Shown piece by piece: positions 1,797 to 11,062 of a stretch of DNA of 52,079 bases. Within the stretch, counting starts at the first letter, position 1; the number at the start of each line of letters is the position of its first letter. Position numbers and translations under genes: made by a program. The notes beneath the pieces were generated by a model, which saw only the letters and a list, made by a program, of their open reading frames with translations, did not search any database and had not been told where the DNA came from. Source of the DNA: Candidatus Saccharimonadota bacterium (GTDB lineage Bacteria > Patescibacteriota > Saccharimonadia > Saccharimonadales > UBA4665); contig JAYTAB010000013.1 in assembly GCA_043737735.1 (NCBI GenBank), positions 1 through 52,079 of the forward strand, read 5' to 3'.

Positions 1797-3464
1797 ATGA
1801 AACGATTCCAACAAATTCTGACAGCTCTCCGTAGCCTATACGCTCCAGAGTACCTCGGCGGTTTGGTCCGCCAGCTCGAACTTGCCGATTACCGGGTCGG
1901 TCGCTATCTGGCTCGCTATTGGTCAACGCAGGATTTCACAACGCTGGAGGCTACGAGTCCACATCGAGTTATGCGTAACCGTGTACTGTGGGTGCTCGTT
2001 TTTGTCGGCAGCTTGATCCAGGCCCTGCTAGGATTGGCGATGATCGTGTATGCGCTGAGTCTCGACGTCTCTCGCGATGATTCTGGGGCGTTGCCGTTCG
2101 GGTTGGCGCTTATCATCTCGTACCCCATCGTCTGGGCGCATATGCTTGGATTTTTCTACGGTGGCTACAAGGTTCTATGGACGTTGACGCATCCCAAGGT
2201 GGCTGGCCGGGCGCTACTTTGCGAATTGCTGGAAAATCAGGTTGTGCGATTGCGTCAGAAGCATAAGTTTACCGTTATTGCGGTGGCCGGTGGTATTGGC
2301 AAGACGTCTACCAAACTTGCAATCGCTCACAGTCTCGAGCCAACTCGCCGCGTCATCTATCAGACCGGCAATTATAATGATCGCGTCACTGTGCCGTTGG
2401 TACTTTTCGGACAAAGTTTGCCGAATTTATTCAATATCGTTGCCTGGACCAAAATATTACTAGCCAACGAGCAAGCTATCTCGCGCCCTAATTTTTACGA
2501 TATTGCAGTATTGGAAATAGGTACCGATCACCCGGGCGACATCAAGCAATTCGCCTACCTGCAGCCCGACATTACCGTAGTGACGGCCATAGTACCGGAG
2601 CACATGGAATATTTTGGCACACTCGATGCCGTGGCCGCTGAGGAGCTGACAGTTTGCGATTTTTCCAAACAGGTCCTGATAGGTGCCGATAACACGCCGG
2701 CGAAATATTTGAAGGGCCGCGAAGTTCTGACATTTGGAACCAGCAAAGATAATGATTTTCGAGCGTCGGGCTATAATCCTCAGGGGCTGGAGGCTACCAA
2801 GTTGAAGCTTCATCTTCAGCACGATATTGCTCTGGATGCCCAGGTCGCCATAGTTGGTCAACAAGGGGTCAAAATCGTGCTGGCCGCCGCAGCCGCCGCT
2901 CAGCTAGCCGGACTAAGTCCGACGGAAGTCAGCCACGGTCTCAAACAGATCAAACCATTTGCTGGTCGCATGCAAGTCTTGCCAGGCATTCATGGTAGTA
3001 CTATCATCGATGATACCTACAATGCCAGCCCGGTCGCCGTCAAAGCCGCGCTGGACGTCCTGTACGGAGTGACCGCGCCGCAGCGGATTGCAATCCTTGG
3101 CAACATGAATGAACTTGGAGATTATAGTCAGGAAGCCCATACGGAAGTTGGCAAGTATTGCCGTGCCGATAAACTTGACCTCGTGGCGACTATCGGGCCA
3201 AACGCCGCCAAGTATCTAGCTCCAGCGGCCCTAGGCGCTGGTTGCAAAGTCGAAAGTTTCGATAGTCCATACTCGGCTGGCGCGTACGTCCGCGCTCGCC
3301 TGAAGAAGTCAGCCGTGATATTGGCTGAAGGCTCGCAAAACGGCGTCTTCGCCGAAGAATCACTCAAAGTCCTGCTGGCTCATAAGGCCGATACCAAGAA
3401 ACTGGTGCGCCAGACGGCGTCCTGGATGCGTATTAAACGATCGCAGTTTCCGCCCGCCGGATAG
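1797..3464 (+). CDS. murF: MurF-like Mur ligase (UDP-MurNAc-tripeptide--D-Ala-D-Ala ligase) with N-terminal transmembrane region
   Basis: P-loop VAGGIGKTSTK, MurF-type motifs IDDTYNASP and GNMNELGD. ATG at 1797 is preferred over GTG at 1749. Two hydrophobic helices precede the ATPase domain. Confidence 0.75.
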   Translation: MKRFQQILTALRSLYAPEYLGGLVRQLELADYRVGRYLARYWSTQDFTTLEATSPHRVMRNRVLWVLVFVGSLIQALLGLAMIVYALSLDVSRDDSGALPFGLALIISYPIVWAHMLGFFYGGYKVLWTLTHPKVAGRALLCELLENQVVRLRQKHKFTVIAVAGGIGKTSTKLAIAHSLEPTRRVIYQTGNYNDRVTVPLVLFGQSLPNLFNIVAWTKILLANEQAISRPNFYDIAVLEIGTDHPGDIKQFAYLQPDITVVTAIVPEHMEYFGTLDAVAAEELTVCDFSKQVLIGADNTPAKYLKGREVLTFGTSKDNDFRASGYNPQGLEATKLKLHLQHDIALDAQVAIVGQQGVKIVLAAAAAAQLAGLSPTEVSHGLKQIKPFAGRMQVLPGIHGSTIIDDTYNASPVAVKAALDVLYGVTAPQRIAILGNMNELGDYSQEAHTEVGKYCRADKLDLVATIGPNAAKYLAPAALGAGCKVESFDSPYSAGAYVRARLKKSAVILAEGSQNGVFAEESLKVLLAHKADTKKLVRQTASWMRIKRSQFPPAG

Positions 3465-3489
3465 TAGTGAGCCGTCTGCCGGCTTTTGG

Positions 3490-4032
3490 CTATTCGGCAA
3501 TCTTCATAAATTCGTATTTCCACCCCGGTTGCCACTGCCATGGGGCAAGTACCGCATCTTCTAGGCCTACGCCTTTTATCCATTGGTCGAGGCCGTACTG
3601 AGTCGCTCGGTGGCCGACAATCATCACGGTTTTTCCGTCGTAGTTTTTTAGAAGATTTTGCAAAAAAGCTTTCATGCGTTTTGAAGTGTCTTCGTAGCTT
3701 TCACCGCCTGGAAAAGGCTTGGTAATAGATTGCTTCTTTAGGCCATCTATATCTGCCTTTGGCCCTCGGTTCATGTCGCCGTAGTTGCATTCGCGCAGGC
3801 GCTTGTCCTGAGTGATGGGATATTTATCGCCAAATGCAAGCTGCGCCGTTTTGTATGACCGCTGGAGATCGGAGCAAAAAATTACGTCAAAGGACTGTCC
3901 CGCGTAACGTTCGCCTAGTTGCTTGGCTTGCTTCTTGCCAGTCTCAGAGAGAGCGACGTCGTACCATCCGGCAGCAAGCTTAGCCTCATTGTCTTTGGTA
4001 GTGGAATGTGGCTCAAACACTATGGTTAGCAT
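3490..4032 (-). CDS. Histidine phosphatase (phosphoglycerate mutase-like) family protein
   Basis: N-terminal EPHSTTKDN (catalytic His region), CSDLQRS, and C-terminal VGHRATQ. Internal Met at 4032 chosen to limit overlap with ddl; the start could instead be 4077. Confidence 0.65.
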   Translation of the reverse strand: MLTIVFEPHSTTKDNEAKLAAGWYDVALSETGKKQAKQLGERYAGQSFDVIFCSDLQRSYKTAQLAFGDKYPITQDKRLRECNYGDMNRGPKADIDGLKKQSITKPFPGGESYEDTSKRMKAFLQNLLKNYDGKTVMIVGHRATQYGLDQWIKGVGLEDAVLAPWQWQPGWKYEFMKIAE

Positions 4033-4951
4033 CAAGGCCTCGGCGACTATGCGCGGCGTCGACCAGTGCGTGGGCAAGTTCCGGCATGCTATAACCAGCC
4101 ACGCCCGCCGCTTTCGGTAGCAAACTTTGCTCAGTCATGCCGGGAATTGTATTTGTTTCGAGTACGTACAGCGAGCCATTTGGGGCGATCATCATGTCGG
4201 TTCGGGACATATCGCGTACCTCGAGTAACTTGTGGATTTGTTGAGCCATATCTTGAGCCCTAGTTTGGATTTCTTGGCTGACGGATTGTGGTGGACAAAG
4301 TTCGATCGTTTTGCCGTTGTATTTGTTTTCGTAATCAAACTCGCCATCTGTAGGCGGCACAATCTCTATGACGGGTAGGGCAGCGTCTAGTAGTACGCCT
4401 ACGGTGATTTCCTGGCCCTCGATAAGTTCCTCGAGCAGCATTTTGGGGTGACGTGCAAATGCGGTTTCGATAGCCTTTCGGTCGTAGACATCTGGATCGC
4501 GAATGATGAAGGTATCGACGCTGGAGCCGCCGTCGAAAGGCTTGAGAACAAAAGGTGTCTGGATAAGTTCGGACTCCCATAGCGCTGACAGGTCAACCAA
4601 TTCGCCGCGCGGCGTAGGCAAGTTAGCGCTCAGCAACGTTTGCTTGTAGCCCCATTTGTCAAAACAGTCGGCCGAAGCACGTGAATCGGCGCCAATGTAG
4701 CGAATTCCGCGGTCCTCCAGCCATTTTTGGATGCTACCGTCCTCACCGCCCTTGCCGTGCAGGACGGGGAATACGACGTCGGCGGCGCGTAATACGCTCT
4801 CGTAGTCTTCCGATTGGTGTGCTGGATCGAGTTGAGTCACGGTGTATCCACTTGTTAGCAGAGCAGCTGATACGGCTGCCCCTGAACGCAGGCTGACTGC
4901 TCGCTCATCAGAATCACCGCCAGATAGTACTATCACGTTTGTCTTTGTCAT
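4013..4951 (-). CDS. ddl: D-alanine--D-alanine ligase
   Basis: VLSGGDSDERAVSLRSG, VFPVLHGKGGEDGSIQ and ATP-grasp C-terminal LETNTIPGMT. Confidence 0.9.
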   Translation of the reverse strand: MTKTNVIVLSGGDSDERAVSLRSGAAVSAALLTSGYTVTQLDPAHQSEDYESVLRAADVVFPVLHGKGGEDGSIQKWLEDRGIRYIGADSRASADCFDKWGYKQTLLSANLPTPRGELVDLSALWESELIQTPFVLKPFDGGSSVDTFIIRDPDVYDRKAIETAFARHPKMLLEELIEGQEITVGVLLDAALPVIEIVPPTDGEFDYENKYNGKTIELCPPQSVSQEIQTRAQDMAQQIHKLLEVRDMSRTDMMIAPNGSLYVLETNTIPGMTEQSLLPKAAGVAGYSMPELAHALVDAAHSRRGLDANHSV

Positions 4952-5066
4952 AGAATGAAGTATAGCGCATTTGAAATTATGATTGTAGACGTAGTTATGG
5001 CCTATCTGTGTATAAATCTATATAATTCCTTCATAGAGTCCGTTCAAGATACTGTAAGGAGTTCAC

Positions 5067-7955
5067 ATGCAGCGTTACAATCCAAAAGATATTGAGCCGA
5101 AATGGCAGGCCAAATGGCAGGCCGACAAGATTTATGAGGCGTCAAATGATCAGTCAAAGCCCAAGAAATATATTCTGGAGTATTTCCCGTACCCCAGTGG
5201 TGCAGCGATGCACGTCGGTCACGTCCGTAATTACACCATCGGTGACGTGTTGGCGCGCCACAGTCGTATGACTGGGCATAATGTGTTGCACCCGATGGGA
5301 TGGGACGCCTTCGGGCTGCCGGCTGAGAATTATGCCATCAAGACAGGCGTTACACCGCGCCAAGCGATTGACGATAACACCACGAAGTTCAAGCAGCAGT
5401 TGATCCAGATGGGCTTCAGCTACGACTGGTCGCGCGAGATCGACAGCACCGACCCGAAGTATTACCGATGGACGCAGTGGTTTTTCCTACTGCTTTTGCG
5501 CCGCGGGCTGGCTTATCAACAGGAAAGTTTGCAATGGTGGTGCCCGGTAGATAAGACGGTGCTGGCCAACGAACAAGTCGAAGCTGGCCTCTGCTGGCGC
5601 TGTGGTAATCAAGTCGAAAAGAAGCTGCTCAAGCAGTGGTTTTTCAAAATCACCGACTACGCTGATCGTCTAGCCAAAGACCTGGATGATGTTAACTGGA
5701 GCGATTCGATCAAATCCATGCAGCGCAATTGGATCGGCCGCTCGGTTGGGGCGGAAGTCGACTTTGCCGTCGACGGACATGACGAGACATTGAAGATCTT
5801 CACGACCCGACCCGATACGCTATTTGGTGCGACTTTCATGGTGCTGTCGCCGGAGCACGGGCTGGTGCGCCAGATTACAACTCCAGATCAGCAGGCTGCG
5901 GTCGCGGATTATATCAAGGCCGCTCAGGCCAAAAGCGACATCGAACGTCAGGAAACTAACCGCGAGAAGACTGGTGTGTTCACCGGTGCTTACGCCATCA
6001 ACCCCGTCAACGATGAGAAAATTCCGATCTGGATCGCTGATTACGTCATGATGGGTTACGGCACTGGCGCGATCATGGCGGTACCAGCTCACGACGAGCG
6101 CGACTACGAATTCGCGACCAAGTTTGATCTGCCTATCGTCCAAGTGGTAATGCCGCTGGAAGACGATTCAAACAATCCACCGAAAGATGGTTTCGAGGAC
6201 GTTCGCCGCGATACGGTCACTGTCCACTTGCGAGACAAGTCTACCGGCAAGTTTGCATTGCTGGACTGGCATGGGACGCTCCAAGGAATTACGACTGCAA
6301 TCATGGGCGGGATTGAGGCGGGACAAACCGCCGAGGATGCGGCACGGGCTGAGGTTGAAGAAGAAGCTGGTATTAGAGATATCTCGATCCTCAAGACGCT
6401 GCGTTGGATTACTGGCGCTCGCTACTGCGCATCGCACAAAAAGCAAAACCGGACAGCCGTTACGACCGTCTTGCTGGCGGAGGTCGAAAACCTACAAAAT
6501 CAAGTCGCAGTCGATGAGAATGAGAAGAGTCTGCACGCCTTGGTATGGGTAGACGAGAACGAGGTGTTGAGCAAACTGACTCCTGACCACCAGAAATATG
6601 TTTGGGGACAATTGCAGCGTGAAACTGCTGTTGTCGGGGAAGGTGAAATGCTGAACTCCGGAGTTTATGATGGCATGGCTGCTAGCGAGGCTCGGGAAAA
6701 GATTGTAGCAGACCTAGAATCAAGGGGTGTCGGCCGTGAAGTGACGAACTACAAAATGCGTGATTGGCTGATCAGTCGCCAGCGTTACTGGGGCGCGCCG
6801 ATCCCCGTCGTCCATTGCCCGAAGGATGGCGTCGTGGCGGTTCCGGAAGGTCAACTACCGGTTGCTCTTCCGGAGTTAGATCGGATTGAGCCGAGCGGTG
6901 ATGGTCGCAGTCCGCTGGCCAACGTGCCTGAGTTCGTTCAGACGACCTGTCCAACTTGCGGTGGTCCGGCTGAGCGCGAAACGGACACCATGGACGGCTT
7001 TGCCTGCTCCAGTTGGTACTTCTTGCGTTTCGCCGACCCGCACAATGACAATGCGCCGTTTGATGCCGACAAAGCCAAGTTTTGGCTGCCAGTTGATGAT
7101 TACATCGGTGGTGCCGAGCACGCTGTCATGCACTTGCTGTACGCCCGATTTTGGACCAAGGTCATGCATGACGAGGGTCTGATCGACTTCGATGAGCCAT
7201 TCGTGACCCTGCGCAACCAGGGTATGATCCTGGCGCCGGACGGTGCCAAGATGAGCAAAAGCAAGGGCAACACCATCGAGCCGAGCGTCCTGATCGATCA
7301 AGGCTACGGTGCTGACAGTGTGCGAATCATGGAACTATTCCTTGGTCCGTGGAATCAATCGGCGGCTTGGAGTGTCGAGGGAATGGGCGGGGCATTCAGA
7401 TTCCTGCAGCGCGTCTGGACACTAGTGCAAGAGTACTATGACGCTCAGCATGGCTCCGAACAGTCACCCGATCTGACTAGGGCACTACACAAAGCCATCA
7501 AAAAAGTCAGCCAAGATATCGAGACGATGAGCTTCAATACCGCCATCGCATCGCTGATGGAGCTGGTCAACGAATTGTTCCGGATCAAAGCCGCCGACAA
7601 CTACGCCTCGGTTGAGTGGCAAGAAACGCTCGCAAATGTCGTACAATTGCTGGCGCCCCTCGCCCCGCATATTGCCGAGGAGCTCTGGGCACAGCTCGGC
7701 CAAGACGGCTCGGTGCATACCAGTGTCTGGCCAGTCTACGACGATCAATATCTACGGCAAGATTCGATGAAAATCGTAATCCAGGTCAATGGCAAACTTC
7801 GTGGCGAGATTGTCGTGGCTACTGATGCAGCAGAAGCGGACGTCATAGCCGCCGCCAACTCAGACCAGAAGGTACGGACCTATCTGGACGGCAAATCGAT
7901 CCGCAAAACGATCTACGTGCCTGGCAAGCTCGTTAACTTCGTAGCTCTAGACTAA
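5067..7955 (+). CDS. leuS: Leucyl-tRNA synthetase with an inserted Nudix-like domain
   Basis: HIGH motif (HVGH), KMSKS, CP1 editing motifs TTRPDTLFGATF and GTGAIMAVPAHDERDYEF, AGGAG-type RBS. 962 aa. Confidence 0.95.
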   Translation: MQRYNPKDIEPKWQAKWQADKIYEASNDQSKPKKYILEYFPYPSGAAMHVGHVRNYTIGDVLARHSRMTGHNVLHPMGWDAFGLPAENYAIKTGVTPRQAIDDNTTKFKQQLIQMGFSYDWSREIDSTDPKYYRWTQWFFLLLLRRGLAYQQESLQWWCPVDKTVLANEQVEAGLCWRCGNQVEKKLLKQWFFKITDYADRLAKDLDDVNWSDSIKSMQRNWIGRSVGAEVDFAVDGHDETLKIFTTRPDTLFGATFMVLSPEHGLVRQITTPDQQAAVADYIKAAQAKSDIERQETNREKTGVFTGAYAINPVNDEKIPIWIADYVMMGYGTGAIMAVPAHDERDYEFATKFDLPIVQVVMPLEDDSNNPPKDGFEDVRRDTVTVHLRDKSTGKFALLDWHGTLQGITTAIMGGIEAGQTAEDAARAEVEEEAGIRDISILKTLRWITGARYCASHKKQNRTAVTTVLLAEVENLQNQVAVDENEKSLHALVWVDENEVLSKLTPDHQKYVWGQLQRETAVVGEGEMLNSGVYDGMAASEAREKIVADLESRGVGREVTNYKMRDWLISRQRYWGAPIPVVHCPKDGVVAVPEGQLPVALPELDRIEPSGDGRSPLANVPEFVQTTCPTCGGPAERETDTMDGFACSSWYFLRFADPHNDNAPFDADKAKFWLPVDDYIGGAEHAVMHLLYARFWTKVMHDEGLIDFDEPFVTLRNQGMILAPDGAKMSKSKGNTIEPSVLIDQGYGADSVRIMELFLGPWNQSAAWSVEGMGGAFRFLQRVWTLVQEYYDAQHGSEQSPDLTRALHKAIKKVSQDIETMSFNTAIASLMELVNELFRIKAADNYASVEWQETLANVVQLLAPLAPHIAEELWAQLGQDGSVHTSVWPVYDDQYLRQDSMKIVIQVNGKLRGEIVVATDAAEADVIAAANSDQKVRTYLDGKSIRKTIYVPGKLVNFVALD

Positions 7956-7998
7956 TCTAGTACCAGACACTCAAGTAGCTAGATTGCAAATCCTAACC

Positions 7999-8027
7999 TT
8001 GTAATCGCAGGTAGAATGCTGTAATAT
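7999..8027 (+). promoter_or_regulatory. Putative sigma70-type promoter upstream of rpmF (TTGTAA-17 nt-TAATAT)
   Basis: TTGTAA at 7999-8004 and TAATAT at 8022-8027 with 17-nt spacing, 57 nt upstream of the rpmF ATG. Confidence 0.35.
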
Positions 8028-8083
8028 AAGCGCAAAGCTTAATGTTAATATATTGCCGTACAAGGTAATGAGGAGTGTATGTT

Positions 8084-8248
8084 ATGGGAAAACCAAAGAA
8101 ACGAACCAGTCCACGCGCTACCGGCGCCCGCCGAAGTCACTTGTTGCTAAAGCTAGCCCGAGCCGTCAACGCTAAGTCACCGATCAAGGTCTACACGACC
8201 CGACGTGAGTCTAGTAAAGATTTAGGCAAACGAGTTGCAAAAGTCTAA
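8084..8248 (+). CDS. rpmF: 50S ribosomal protein L32 (not in the ORF track because it is under 60 aa)
   Basis: 54-aa ORF MGKPKKRTSPRATGARRSHLLLK matches the L32 N-terminal signature (PKKRTS...RRSH). AGGAG lies 8 nt upstream of the ATG. Confidence 0.8.
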   Translation: MGKPKKRTSPRATGARRSHLLLKLARAVNAKSPIKVYTTRRESSKDLGKRVAKV

Positions 8249-8354
8249 GCCGACTTCGTAAAAGCACAGACATTATTAAGCATCTTCGTCTATACTAGAA
8301 AGTAGTTTGACGGATAACCCAATATTTTTGTAAATCGCACGGAGCCTTAACAAT

Positions 8355-8912
8355 ATGGCATCAAATCGCCACCTCGGTCGCATTATTGCACTCCAAACCT
8401 TGTATGAGGAGGAGTTTCGCAGCGACGCCGCCGATGTAAATTTTAACCTCGAAGAGGTGTTGCAGCGCAACATCGATCGCTACTCGGAGATGGTTGACGA
8501 CGTCGCCTTCATCTGTGATTTAGTAAATGGTGTTCTCAAGCATGCCGCTGACCTCGATGCGACCTTGCAGCCGATTGCTCCCGATTGGCCTATTGACCAG
8601 ATCGCTAGGATGGACCGTATCGTTCTGCGTATCGGTCTATACGAACTGGTGTATGCCCGCGACGTTCCACCGAAGGTGGTTATCAATGAAGCTGTTGAAT
8701 TGGCCAAAGCCTTTGGCGGTGAAAACTCGAGCAAATTCGTGAATGGCGTGCTTGGAACGGTGCTACGGCAACGCGAATTGTCTGATGGCGACACGGCTAA
8801 GCCGGAAACTTCATTGGATGACGAGTCGACGGAAACGTCCGAGGACCAGGCGTGTGAACCAGAGTCGGCTCCAATAACCACACCAAAAACCAAAAGGGCA
8901 AAGGTTACGTGA
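8355..8912 (+). CDS. nusB: Transcription antitermination factor NusB with acidic C-terminal extension
   Basis: RIIALQTLYEEEF and INEAVELAKAFGGENSSKFVNGVLG. About 50 extra Asp/Glu/Ser/Thr-rich residues at the C-terminus. Confidence 0.9.
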   Translation: MASNRHLGRIIALQTLYEEEFRSDAADVNFNLEEVLQRNIDRYSEMVDDVAFICDLVNGVLKHAADLDATLQPIAPDWPIDQIARMDRIVLRIGLYELVYARDVPPKVVINEAVELAKAFGGENSSKFVNGVLGTVLRQRELSDGDTAKPETSLDDESTETSEDQACEPESAPITTPKTKRAKVT

Positions 8913-8913
8913 A

Positions 8914-9546
8914 ATGGCTGACGAACTTCAGAGCAAACCGAGCAGTGAGAACTCTCAGCGCGCCAACAAAGGCCAGCAGCGGGATCAGTCCAGCGATCAG
9001 CGTAGAGGTCAACGCATAGATCTGCCGAGGGACCGCAGCCTGTTCGGCAAACATTCCGGACCGATTCAGGGTATTCGCGATTTTGTCGCCAAGCGTCGCC
9101 CCTCAATAGACGAGGTTGTTCGCGAGACGACTTCCGGTGGCATCGTGTTTCGGCGCAATTCCGACACCAACAAGGTCGAGATTCTGCTGATACAGGACGC
9201 CAAGAACCGTTGGACGATACCAAAAGGTCATGTCGAAGAAGGCGAAGGCCCGAAGCAAACCGCGGAACGCGAAATTCGCGAGGAAACAGGCTTACAGGAG
9301 ATGAAGGTCTACGACTGGCTGGGCAAGGTCAATTTCCGCTATCGCCGCACCCACACCTTGGTACTTATGACTATGCACATCTATCTCGTGAAGGGTTTGG
9401 GCGATACCAATAAGCTGGAGGGTGAAGACTGGCTGACGGATATCAAATGGTTTCCAGCTGCCGAGGCCGTCGACAAAATCGCCTACGAAGACATCGGCAA
9501 ACTGATGCTGCTAGGCATGAAAAAAATACGCGACGCAAAATTGTAA
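8914..9546 (+). CDS. NUDIX hydrolase with disordered N-terminal extension
   Basis: Canonical Nudix box GHVEEGEGPKQTAEREIREETGL. Starts 1 nt after the nusB stop. Confidence 0.85.
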   Translation: MADELQSKPSSENSQRANKGQQRDQSSDQRRGQRIDLPRDRSLFGKHSGPIQGIRDFVAKRRPSIDEVVRETTSGGIVFRRNSDTNKVEILLIQDAKNRWTIPKGHVEEGEGPKQTAEREIREETGLQEMKVYDWLGKVNFRYRRTHTLVLMTMHIYLVKGLGDTNKLEGEDWLTDIKWFPAAEAVDKIAYEDIGKLMLLGMKKIRDAKL

Positions 9547-9571
9547 TAAACGCTACAGAGATGAGAAAATA

Positions 9572-10270
9572 ATGGACTACGCACCCTACCAAGAATTCGC
9601 AACCAAAGTACTCGGCGTCACCTTTCGTGACATCGAATTGCTCATCACGGCATTTACTCACCGCTCCTATGTCAATGAGCACAAAAAGACAGTCAGCGTC
9701 CACAACGAGCGTCTAGAGTTCCTCGGCGACGCTGTGCTCGAGCTAGTCGTCACCGAATATCTGTATGGCAATTATGATGACCCAGAAGGCATCCTGACCA
9801 ATTGGCGCAGTGCATTGGTGCGAACCGAGAGTATCGGTGCTGCCGCCGCCAAAGCCGGATTCGAACCGCTACTGCGACTCAGCAGGGGCGAGAAACGCGG
9901 TAGTGACCGAGCCCGCGAGCAGATCCTGGCCAACGGATACGAGGCAGTACTCGGTGCCCTCTACCTCGACCAAGGCTACGCTGCCGCCAAGAAATTTATC
10001 ACCGAAACCATCCTTAGCACTTTCGAACAGATCCTGTCCAGCGGTTCGTGGATGGACGCCAAATCCCATCTCCAGGAAGTCGTTCAAAGCCGCGAAGGCT
10101 TCACGCCAGTTTACAAGGTTCTCGAAGAAGTCGGCCCAGATCACGATAAGATATTTACCGTCGGTGTTTTCGTCGGTGTAAACCTCCGTGGCAGCGGCAC
10201 GGGCCCTAGCAAACAGGCCGGCCAACAAAAGGCCGCCGAAGCTGCACTGGCGTATTACGCCGAGCAATAG
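9572..10270 (+). CDS. rnc: Ribonuclease III
   Basis: RNase III signature ERLEFLGDAVLELVV plus a C-terminal dsRBD (GPSKQAGQQKAAEAAL). Confidence 0.95.
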   Translation: MDYAPYQEFATKVLGVTFRDIELLITAFTHRSYVNEHKKTVSVHNERLEFLGDAVLELVVTEYLYGNYDDPEGILTNWRSALVRTESIGAAAAKAGFEPLLRLSRGEKRGSDRAREQILANGYEAVLGALYLDQGYAAAKKFITETILSTFEQILSSGSWMDAKSHLQEVVQSREGFTPVYKVLEEVGPDHDKIFTVGVFVGVNLRGSGTGPSKQAGQQKAAEAALAYYAEQ

Positions 10271-10348
10271 AACGCATCAGACGACTAGCGAAGGGTGGCC
10301 AGACACCATCAATGCATAAATAGCACAATTTGTGGTATTTTATGTACC

Positions 10349-11062
10349 ATGAGTTTGAGCAAAGTTGAGTTGACCGCTGACAAGACTGTCTTGCCGGTCG
10401 GAATAGAAGTGCCATGGGGAGAATGGCTACAATCGAGCGCTCATAGCGCCGTCTATACCAATGGAATTGATGATGGTCTATGCAGACAACCCCGAACTCG
10501 ATTGGATAATACGCATCTTGTGATGATTAATGGTCCATGTGGCGCTGGAAAAAGCACAATATCAAGGGTATTAGCCGAACGGTTGCCTAACGCCGTGCTA
10601 CTCAGCACCGATGATTTACGAGACACCATGCCGGAACCGCTCATACCCGATGTGTTGGGTCGTGATGAACGATTTGCTTTTATGAAAGATGTCAATTTTG
10701 TTGGTAGGCAAATAGCCAAAAAAGCGTTGCTAGCAGATCGAGATGTTATCGTAGACGGTATCCTGTATGAGGATGAGTGGATTGATCCTTGGACAGACCT
10801 AGGTGAGGCGTGCGGGGCACAGGTTGCGGACGTATGCGTTTATGCGCCGAAGGCTACTGTTACAGAAAGAGTGCTTCGGAGAGATGCGAATGAGAACAGT
10901 CGGCTAACACCAGCGAAAATTTCTGATTTGTATGATAAAGTGATGAGTTTCTATGTACATCGACCGGACTCCTTCGTTGTTAGAAGTGATGAATTAACGC
11001 CTATGGCTGCGGCGAACAGTATTGTTTACTATCTAGATTATGGAATCGTTGGAATACGCTAA
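10349..11062 (+). CDS. P-loop NTPase/kinase (AAA_33 / zeta-toxin-like fold)
   Basis: Walker A INGPCGAGKSTISRVLA followed by LLSTDDLRD. Start placed at internal Met MSLSKVEL. Confidence 0.6.
   Translation: MSLSKVELTADKTVLPVGIEVPWGEWLQSSAHSAVYTNGIDDGLCRQPRTRLDNTHLVMINGPCGAGKSTISRVLAERLPNAVLLSTDDLRDTMPEPLIPDVLGRDERFAFMKDVNFVGRQIAKKALLADRDVIVDGILYEDEWIDPWTDLGEACGAQVADVCVYAPKATVTERVLRRDANENSRLTPAKISDLYDKVMSFYVHRPDSFVVRSDELTPMAAANSIVYYLDYGIVGIR

Follow-up and report, generated by a model that had tools for sequence, protein, structure and literature searches.

The leucyl-tRNA synthetase (LeuRS) of a Candidatus Saccharimonadota bacterium contains a complete, full-length Nudix domain and not a chance motif, and alignments place it within a loop at the surface of the CP1 editing domain. 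The host gene, leuS, encodes a protein of 962 amino acids and occupies positions 5067-7955 (+ strand) of the 52,079-nucleotide stretch analysed here (contig JAYTAB010000013.1, assembly GCA_043737735.1; the window). The domain belongs to a distinct Nudix subfamily of Patescibacteria-labelled genomes, members of which occur as free-standing proteins, at two sites in LeuRS, in tandem, and in prolyl-tRNA synthetase (ProRS). In the window's family the insert is found often but patchily, and LeuRS can do without it. Purifying selection acts on the insert, with a ratio of nonsynonymous to synonymous substitution rates (dN/dS) close to that of the rest of LeuRS.

The insert, at 6150-6641 (+), translates to a 164-residue segment (LeuRS residues 362-525) of a class designated type A below. 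It scores 42.9 bits on the Pfam profile NUDIX (PF00293; cut-off 21.1), and the match spans profile positions 3-129 of 134 (nucleotides 6207-6596, +); the same profile matches 44 of 44 aligned homologues of the insert. An earlier reading of the bare DNA (the original prediction) had proposed an extra segment of about 160 residues with a Nudix fold in this 962-residue enzyme. The extra segment is confirmed and its Nudix identity supported: the segment measures 158-164 residues, the curated profile threshold is exceeded in the window and likewise in all 44 homologues, and the profile search does not point to the competing possibility, an already known LeuRS insertion of the lineage whose fold is unrelated. 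Its placement of the segment next to CP1 was mistaken. The editing-domain profile PF13603 is broken by the insert at position 147 of 185, and the insert therefore lies inside CP1, not beside it. In the alignment to Thermus thermophilus (Tt) LeuRS (1h3n), query residues 1-362 correspond to Tt 1-363 and residues 521-724 to Tt 376-580, so that 158 residues stand in place of a 12-residue loop, Tt 364-375.

The host LeuRS is otherwise intact. Its open reading frame scores 1066.4 bits against TIGR00396 (leuS_bact, the bacterial LeuRS equivalog; cut-off 548.4) in two clean pieces, with profile positions 1-365 ending at nucleotide 6173 and positions 364-841 restarting at 6615, and it is colinear with T. 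thermophilus LeuRS over the full length (873 bits). A search of the whole source assembly (0.99 Mb in 77 contigs, 91.5% complete) reveals no second LeuRS above the TIGR00396 cut-off. Among the sequencing runs listed as containing the sequence there is no RNA run; the only two are sediment metagenomes, sequenced as DNA, from which the window may derive. The HIGH motif (HVGH, 5211-5222), the KMSKS motif (7248-7262), the Thr-rich editing motif TTRPDT (5802-5819) and the CP1 editing motif GTGAIMAVPAHDERD (6060-6104), which includes the GTG...AHDERD (AHD-x2-D) element, are all retained on the + strand, as expected of a bacterial LeuRS. The N-terminal part of CP1 lies at 5724-6149 (+), where PF13603 (229.1 bits) aligns its positions 1-147 to residues 220-368 before a second stretch past the insert; at 6642-6794 (+) the chain completes the C-terminal part of CP1 and re-enters the catalytic core (MLNSG ... 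YKMRDWLISRQRYWG), as located by the T. thermophilus alignment and by motif. The leucine-specific domain that precedes KMSKS is absent: the 1h3n alignment skips Tt 581-634, with one query residue between Tt 580 and Tt 635. The domain is missing at 7230-7262 (LeuRS residues about 722-732, ...ILAPDGAKMSKS...), and profile positions about 570-603 are missing too in ten insert-free and several insert-bearing LeuRSs of the window's family. The available part of one report describes a LeuRS without this domain from Mycoplasma mobile (PMC3643597).

The insert is widespread but patchy in its phylum, as a survey of orthologues suggested in the original prediction now documents. In a search of 5.8 billion proteins with the insert alone, restricted to candidates of LeuRS length, the best 120 of 256 matches were examined; all 120 contain LeuRS domains, and 116 carry a precomputed PF00293 tag. 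Their named sources, like all taxon names of homologues given here, are taken from record titles: Candidatus Saccharibacteria, Saccharimonadales, Parcubacteria, Paceibacteria and 'Patescibacteria group'. One match bears the JGI product name 'leucyl-tRNA synthetase/ADP-ribose pyrophosphatase YjhB (NUDIX family)'. A scan with the type-A alignment across one genome per species of all prokaryotes yields 66 loci from the same candidate phyla, plus Kaiserbacteria, Nomurabacteria, Moranbacteria and Minisyncoccia. Three Patescibacteria-type LeuRSs with a type-A or related Nudix insert carry other titles: L082 and L088 ('uncultured Gammaproteobacteria bacterium') and P0276 ('Burkholderiales bacterium'). 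The Proteobacteria labels are probably binning or labelling errors, and L082 and L088 fall among Patescibacteria in the LeuRS tree.

Counts within the phylum and the family give the same picture. Among 401 genomes drawn evenly from the window's phylum, the single insert sequence matches 66 at E <= 1e-5, and a profile of 44 inserts matches 65 at E <= 1.7e-22 in open frames of 621-1795 amino acids; weaker profile matches are ordinary short Nudix genes. The site is the same in all 38 loci fetched (9 from the family, 29 from the phylum), which are colinear with the window's LeuRS across the insert. In the window's family, LeuRS is found in 49 of 51 genomes. It is split at profile position 360-377 in 14 of the 49 (open frames of 964-1106 amino acids) and unbroken at the site in 30, which indicates that the host can dispense with the insert. 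These insert-free frames span 805-845 amino acids, bar one of 911 (N-terminally extended) and one of 722 (truncated). A further two LeuRSs are interrupted at 233-242 alone, another two are in too many fragments for a call, and that of G046 (open frame of 967 amino acids) is split at profile position 436, not about 365, implying what may be yet another insertion site, for a segment of about 130 residues. Family and phylum counts include the unpublished genomes G001 (insert-bearing), G014 (insert-free) and G253 (generic match), none of which enters the alignments.

The Nudix box of the insert is a variant one. GGIEAGQTAEDAARAEVEEEAGI (6306-6374, +) differs from GX5EX7REUXEEXGU in two places: the first Glu is replaced by Gln, and Ala fills the place of the Arg, with an Arg standing one residue earlier, just as the original prediction had read it; written out as G-x5-Q-x7-A-E-V-x-E-E-x-G-I, it falls short of the full canonical box. 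The deviation characterizes the class. Gln occupies the Gx5E position in 119 of 120 type-A homologues, and the Arg position is filled by A in 77, M in 19, T in 11, N in 4, S in 3, R in 2, Q in 2, V in 1 and K in 1. The metal-binding Glu residues are retained in 120, 119 and 120 of the 120. Across both insert classes (44-sequence alignment), G53, E68, E71 and E72 (insert numbering) are invariant, and K97 is conserved in at least 90%. Basal type-A members keep the box Glu together with Lys or Arg, and the box of L103 is fully canonical, as are those read from the same-genus relative and most other relatives. With the first Glu and the Arg replaced and the E-x2-EE triad kept, the type-A site may be retuned yet still active. 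The first box Glu was reportedly the least critical of the box glutamates in mutagenesis of E. coli MutT.

Beyond the box, R20, W40, Y92, H96, K97, N100, R101 and W133 are each present in 120 of 120 type-A homologues. Several of these fall in the loop YCASHKKQNR (6423-6452, +), which exemplifies the aromatic-x3-HK-x2-NR signature of the subfamily. Y92 sits 17 residues past the end of the box at I75 and thereby carries the marker of diadenosine polyphosphate (ApnA) hydrolases, a Tyr about 16-18 residues past the box (Dunn et al. 1999, as quoted in the available part of PMC5389931).

The subfamily extends well beyond this LeuRS. An exhaustive profile search of 1.84 billion cluster representatives returns 27,551 at E <= 1e-3, 959 at 1e-10 and 175 at 1e-30. 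The best 150 comprise 108 with LeuRS sequence (a single Nudix copy in 95, two in 10, three in 3) and 42 without, and 26 of these 42 are 126-207 amino acids long. Eleven of the short, free-standing members were read: they begin and end independently, lack LeuRS motifs and show the family signature, and three of the 11 have the Gln box variant. P0129 consists of tandem Nudix copies only. Ten longer representatives among the 42 were resolved with Pfam: six are LeuRS fragments, one is a double Nudix protein, one is without a Pfam match, another joins a Nudix domain to an unknown N-terminal part, and P0233 (643 amino acids) is a prolyl-tRNA synthetase (PF00587, PF03129, PF09180) with the Nudix domain between its anticodon-binding and C-terminal domains. 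A follow-up search adds a second such ProRS, P0273, its other 10 of 12 matches being LeuRS; both are metagenomic class II enzymes with a ProRS-C_1 domain and the same Nudix subfamily. In LeuRS itself, Nudix copies also occupy a second site just before CP1 (P0003, P0123, P0124, P0125). On the domain tree the free proteins need 8 state changes, at least 2 of them forced, and the second-site copies 5, at least 3 of them forced; the forced changes imply more than one move between free and inserted states.

A word-based search of proteins of 90-287 amino acids for a free-standing type-A relative returned a LeuRS fragment only. Of ten short open-reading-frame matches from the sampled genomes, L123 alone bears the HK-x2-NR signature; L125, a truncated frame of 112 amino acids, is without it, and eight are generic Nudix. 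A metagenome scan with P0141 recovered one truncated free-standing locus (L133) and three LeuRS loci. PADLOC, which models defence systems, gave no match for the insert or for two free-standing family members.

Other hydrolases ride on LeuRS as well, at three further sites: one early in CP1, one immediately ahead of the Nudix insert, and one where the chain is back in the catalytic core. A Ser_hydrolase or alpha/beta-hydrolase domain lies early in CP1 of P0049, P0064, P0214 and P0177; HAD_2 occurs just before the Nudix insert in P0115 and further on in P0140 and P0248; and P0146 contains a full-length Ham1/ITPase domain (E = 3e-58). Ham1 and HAD are classic nucleotide house-cleaning families. 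The most elaborate case, a LeuRS of 1795 amino acids in G125 (L139:4676-10063, G125:C23), combines HAD_2 (249-403), Ham1/ITPase (452-556), NUDIX (817-870) and a nucleotidyltransferase-like segment (1336-1456) with the editing domain and all LeuRS domains. This census covers long proteins chosen for matching the Nudix profile and does not measure the overall frequency of passengers.

Two classes of insert share the same site. Type-A inserts are 58-71% identical to that of the window, while most relatives carry type B, with a canonical box such as GGIEDGETLEQAAKREFAEETGY and 16-33% identity to the window's insert. The contrast is sharpest within the genus. The LeuRS backbone of G070 (locus L026) is 82% identical to the window's over 787 columns (85% N-terminal, 77% C-terminal), yet its insert is a canonical type B, about 25% identical; this disparity is what makes the module appear to behave as an exchanged cassette. 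The identity drop is limited to about residues 355-530, reaching no more than about 10 residues beyond either edge of the insert. At the protein level, the window's and the same-genus LeuRS show no long tract of recombination, and the GC content of the insert (0.52-0.54) is no different from that of its flanks, giving no signal of recent transfer.

In a FastTree phylogeny of 93 LeuRS backbones, from which the insert columns were removed, the window pairs with L026 with support 100, and mapping the A/B label requires at least 12 changes, at least 10 of them forced by well-supported branches. Among type-A pairs, insert identity stays near 58% while backbone identity spans 35%-65% (1596 pairs, Spearman 0.11). 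The classes are discrete: A-B insert identity peaks at 37.3% (2052 pairs) and A-A identity bottoms out at 40.5%. Type A forms a single clade in a tree of 88 Nudix domains (Shimodaira-Hasegawa-like approximate likelihood-ratio test, SH-aLRT, 100), with a stem of 0.99 and short inner branches. The trees reported here come from quick or FastTree runs. Either cassette recombination through very conserved flanks or differential loss from tandem ancestors could generate such a pattern; LeuRSs with tandem A+B and B+A inserts do exist (P0006, P0011, P0012, P0019, P0042). Since seven closely related family backbones bear three insert classes, the more economical reading is that the module has been exchanged between lineages as a cassette.

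The evidence for purifying selection comes chiefly from the two close type-A pairs with unsaturated dS. In L064/L072, dN/dS is 0.031 for the insert and 0.030 for the rest of the gene; in L089/L098 the values are 0.060 and 0.034. In L059/L060 and L068/L076, where dS exceeds 1, insert and host values are again close to each other. The further pairs include one type-B pair with a value for the insert only and two that are fully saturated. Among type-A matches, mean identity to the window is 63% for the insert, against 55% and 47% for the flanking parts of LeuRS, and in 98 of 107 full-length matches no other part is as well conserved as the insert, a comparison biased upward by the ranking of matches on insert score.

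The function of the insert is a matter of weighing several readings. We give roughly an even chance to the possibility that it is an active house-cleaning hydrolase, similar to ApnA hydrolases and RppH, that rides on LeuRS as a carrier. The module would be a Mg2+/Mn2+-dependent pyrophosphohydrolase of the ApnA-hydrolase/RppH-like branch, folding and acting on its own, independently of the synthetase reactions. Its substrates would be adenine-containing dinucleoside polyphosphates or related nucleotide derivatives, cleared as house-cleaning. LeuRS would serve as a constitutively expressed carrier that tolerates insertions in its CP1 loops, and aminoacylation and editing would run as they do in insert-free LeuRS. 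The original prediction had suggested an extra hydrolytic activity, an idea that the three invariant catalytic Glu residues and the fully canonical box of most relatives appear to favour. Its suggestion of a role related to diadenosine tetraphosphate (Ap4A) would fit too, given the Tyr 17 residues past the box and the nearest solved structures. Profile comparison ranks flax-rust AvrM14-A/B (8dp8) and the lupin (1f3y) and Aquifex (3i7u) Ap4A hydrolases as the best solved relatives, followed by Bdellovibrio RppH (BdRppH, 3ees), Chlamydia CT771 (4ilq) and human NUDT2 (3u53), at E = 4e-10 to 1e-5. RppH models are also the most frequent NCBIfam match, in 43 of 44 members, with every score far below the cut-off. 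A house-cleaning role also suits organisms with many Nudix genes in small genomes, and the 0.99-Mb genome has 14 Pfam NUDIX matches above the cut-off, an unusually high density.

Several observations weigh against an active house-cleaning enzyme. Type-A boxes have Gln in place of the first Glu in 119 of 120 sequences and have lost the Arg in 118 of 120, which could mean that catalysis was lost. All matches to characterised subfamilies lie far below their cut-offs, and the substrate assignment draws on weak similarity and one marker residue. The window's best match to an RppH model reaches 18.5 bits against 116, short of the RppH/Ap4A-hydrolase equivalog, and the best E-value among the 44 members, 7.7e-11, still goes with a score below the cut-off. 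Nor are the hosts random, with LeuRS in 108 of the top 150 representatives and ProRS the only other host found.

That the known hosts are two aminoacyl-tRNA synthetases (aaRSs) is the main argument for a functional link to synthetase chemistry or tRNA over mere convenience, in which case the fusion itself would matter. The domain could be integrated with the synthetase, either destroying by-products of aminoacyl-adenylate of the Ap4A or diadenosine triphosphate (Ap3A) type or acting on the tRNA acceptor end as it passes CP1, a scheme we hold to be possible but doubtful. It draws on the fact that aaRSs make Ap4A, on the unrelatedness of the two hosts (class I LeuRS and, in clusters P0233 and P0273, class II ProRS), and on insertion sites in or beside the editing domain; the ApnA-hydrolase/RppH-like affinities and the Tyr marker also speak for such a coupled role. 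However, the same family exists as free-standing proteins, 30 of 49 family LeuRSs do without the insert, and it is not obvious how inserts such as Ham1, HAD and alpha/beta-hydrolase would relate to adenylate chemistry. ProRS fusions are also rare, at 2 of 12 matches in the follow-up search. Unusual tRNA 5' ends as a target find no support, as RNase P RNA is present in the genome and tRNA 5' ends should be ordinary monophosphates.

If the box substitutions of type A instead mark a loss of catalysis, the insert would be a non-catalytic Nudix fold, a ligand sensor or an RNA- or protein-binding modulator of LeuRS, with type A as a degenerate, binding-only form. The long type-A stem (0.99) followed by short branches would then record a functional shift followed by constraint, and non-enzymatic Nudix-fold proteins are documented (available part of PMC5389931), with CF Im25 as a further example. 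We nonetheless consider a binding-only domain unlikely: canonical boxes persist in the sister classes and in basal type-A members, and the first Gly and the E-x2-EE triad are invariant, features usually not retained by Nudix domains that only bind. Very improbable is a segment with no function at all, such as a neutral filler or selfish insertion, an intein, an intron or a chimera created during assembly. Its patchy distribution, its dispensability in relatives and the incongruence of insert and host phylogenies would be expected of such an element, but insert dN/dS is only 0.03-0.06 and the segment is in frame. An assembly artefact is excluded by the recurrence of the architecture in 120 independent homologues from many sources and at 66 genome loci. 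An intein is rejected as well, because the insert starts with MPLEDD and ends with ...AVVGE before GEMLNSG, with no Cys, Ser or Thr at its start and no His-Asn at its end, and no intein or Hint family is among the Pfam matches listed for the LeuRS protein. No Rfam family is found in 4800-8500 and no tRNA in 3000-11000.

A bolder extension of the house-cleaning and exchange readings is a long shot. Patescibacterial aaRSs might be platforms on which exchangeable cassettes encoding hydrolases (Nudix classes, Ham1/ITPase, HAD, alpha/beta-hydrolase) dock, entering and leaving a handful of conserved loops by recombination between lineages, with type A acting on synthetase-linked nucleotides. Were this so, it would amount to a domain-level mobile system aimed at essential, conserved genes, intein-like but carrying useful enzymes. 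Type-A targets could include Ap4A-type alarmones, RNA caps derived from them, or inhibitors that mimic adenylates, and the cassette would be kept for protecting or tuning translation in nucleotide-scavenging cells.

Downstream of leuS, the gene order is leuS-nusB-nudix-rnc, with nusB (8355-8912) and RNase III (rnc, 9572-10270) named from reading of their translations. The Nudix gene between them (8914-9546, +) encodes a free-standing canonical Nudix protein (PF00293, 69.4 bits) with a basic, Gln/Arg-rich N-terminal extension. The original prediction had noted this gene and judged it not closely related to the insert, an assessment that stands at 21% identity (E = 0.032); derivation of the insert from its neighbour is rejected on the same figures. 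A short Nudix open frame also lies about 1 kb downstream of the insert-less leuS of G041 and G033, which suggests that the synteny of leuS and a downstream Nudix gene is conserved. The 400-bp gap between leuS and nusB (7956-8354) has a GC content of 0.45-0.47, below that of the flanking genes, and contains no tRNA and no Rfam match.

Few known proteins are as conserved as aminoacyl-tRNA synthetases, and their accessory domains are viewed chiefly as a feature of eukaryotes. In the window's genome the sole LeuRS hosts a complete enzyme domain within CP1, and roughly one in six of the genomes sampled from the phylum share this arrangement. Taken with the ProRS fusion and the inserted Ham1, HAD and alpha/beta-hydrolase domains, the Nudix inserts point to an unrecognised way of arranging nucleotide house-cleaning around the translation apparatus in ultra-small, nucleotide-scavenging bacteria. 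The inserts offer a natural system for studying nested domain insertion in an essential enzyme, for assigning substrates in a new Nudix subfamily, and for asking if Ap4A-type metabolism is physically tied to where it originates. They also bear on annotation and phylogenomics, as LeuRS is a common marker gene and the cassettes have histories that differ from that of the host gene. Full-text literature searching found no description of a Nudix domain in LeuRS or any other aaRS, in agreement with the original prediction, although subscription journals lie mostly outside its coverage and an earlier mention is possible. What appears to be new is the Nudix subfamily, with exchangeable nested cassettes as its unusual evolutionary behaviour; accessory enzyme domains on aaRSs and the PF00293 tags in databases were already known.

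Compared with known systems, the host resembles the bacterial LeuRSs of T. thermophilus (1h3n) and E. coli (4aq7) in having CP1 within the Rossmann fold and both catalytic and editing motifs in place; unlike the T. thermophilus enzyme, it has a 158-residue Nudix domain for loop 364-375 and no counterpart of Tt 581-634. The insert shares with the ApnA/RppH/decapping branch of Nudix proteins, represented by the six structures above, the common NUDIX domain, the E-x2-EE triad and an aromatic residue about 17 positions past the box. In contrast to these free-standing relatives, it is nested in another enzyme, bears its own aromatic-x3-HK-x2-NR signature and, in type A, has a box with Gln and without the Arg. 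A precedent for joining Nudix to an ATP-using nucleotidyltransferase is the bifunctional NadM-Nudix protein (PRK05379 models, which match 2-4 of the 44 inserts weakly). NadM-Nudix (NMN adenylyltransferase / ADP-ribose pyrophosphatase) joins its two enzymes end to end and has a defined role with ADP-ribose, whereas the window's Nudix domain is nested and its host is a tRNA synthetase. Isoleucyl-tRNA synthetase with a GNAT domain (IleRS, NF040702, known here from the model name) likewise pairs an essential class I synthetase with an unrelated enzymatic domain, though of a different family. In the available part of a survey of 213 domain-insertion events, the PF13603 editing domain is always the inserted module and never the host (PMC13114784, 2026); in the window's LeuRS this editing domain acts as a host in its turn, which makes the nesting three levels deep.

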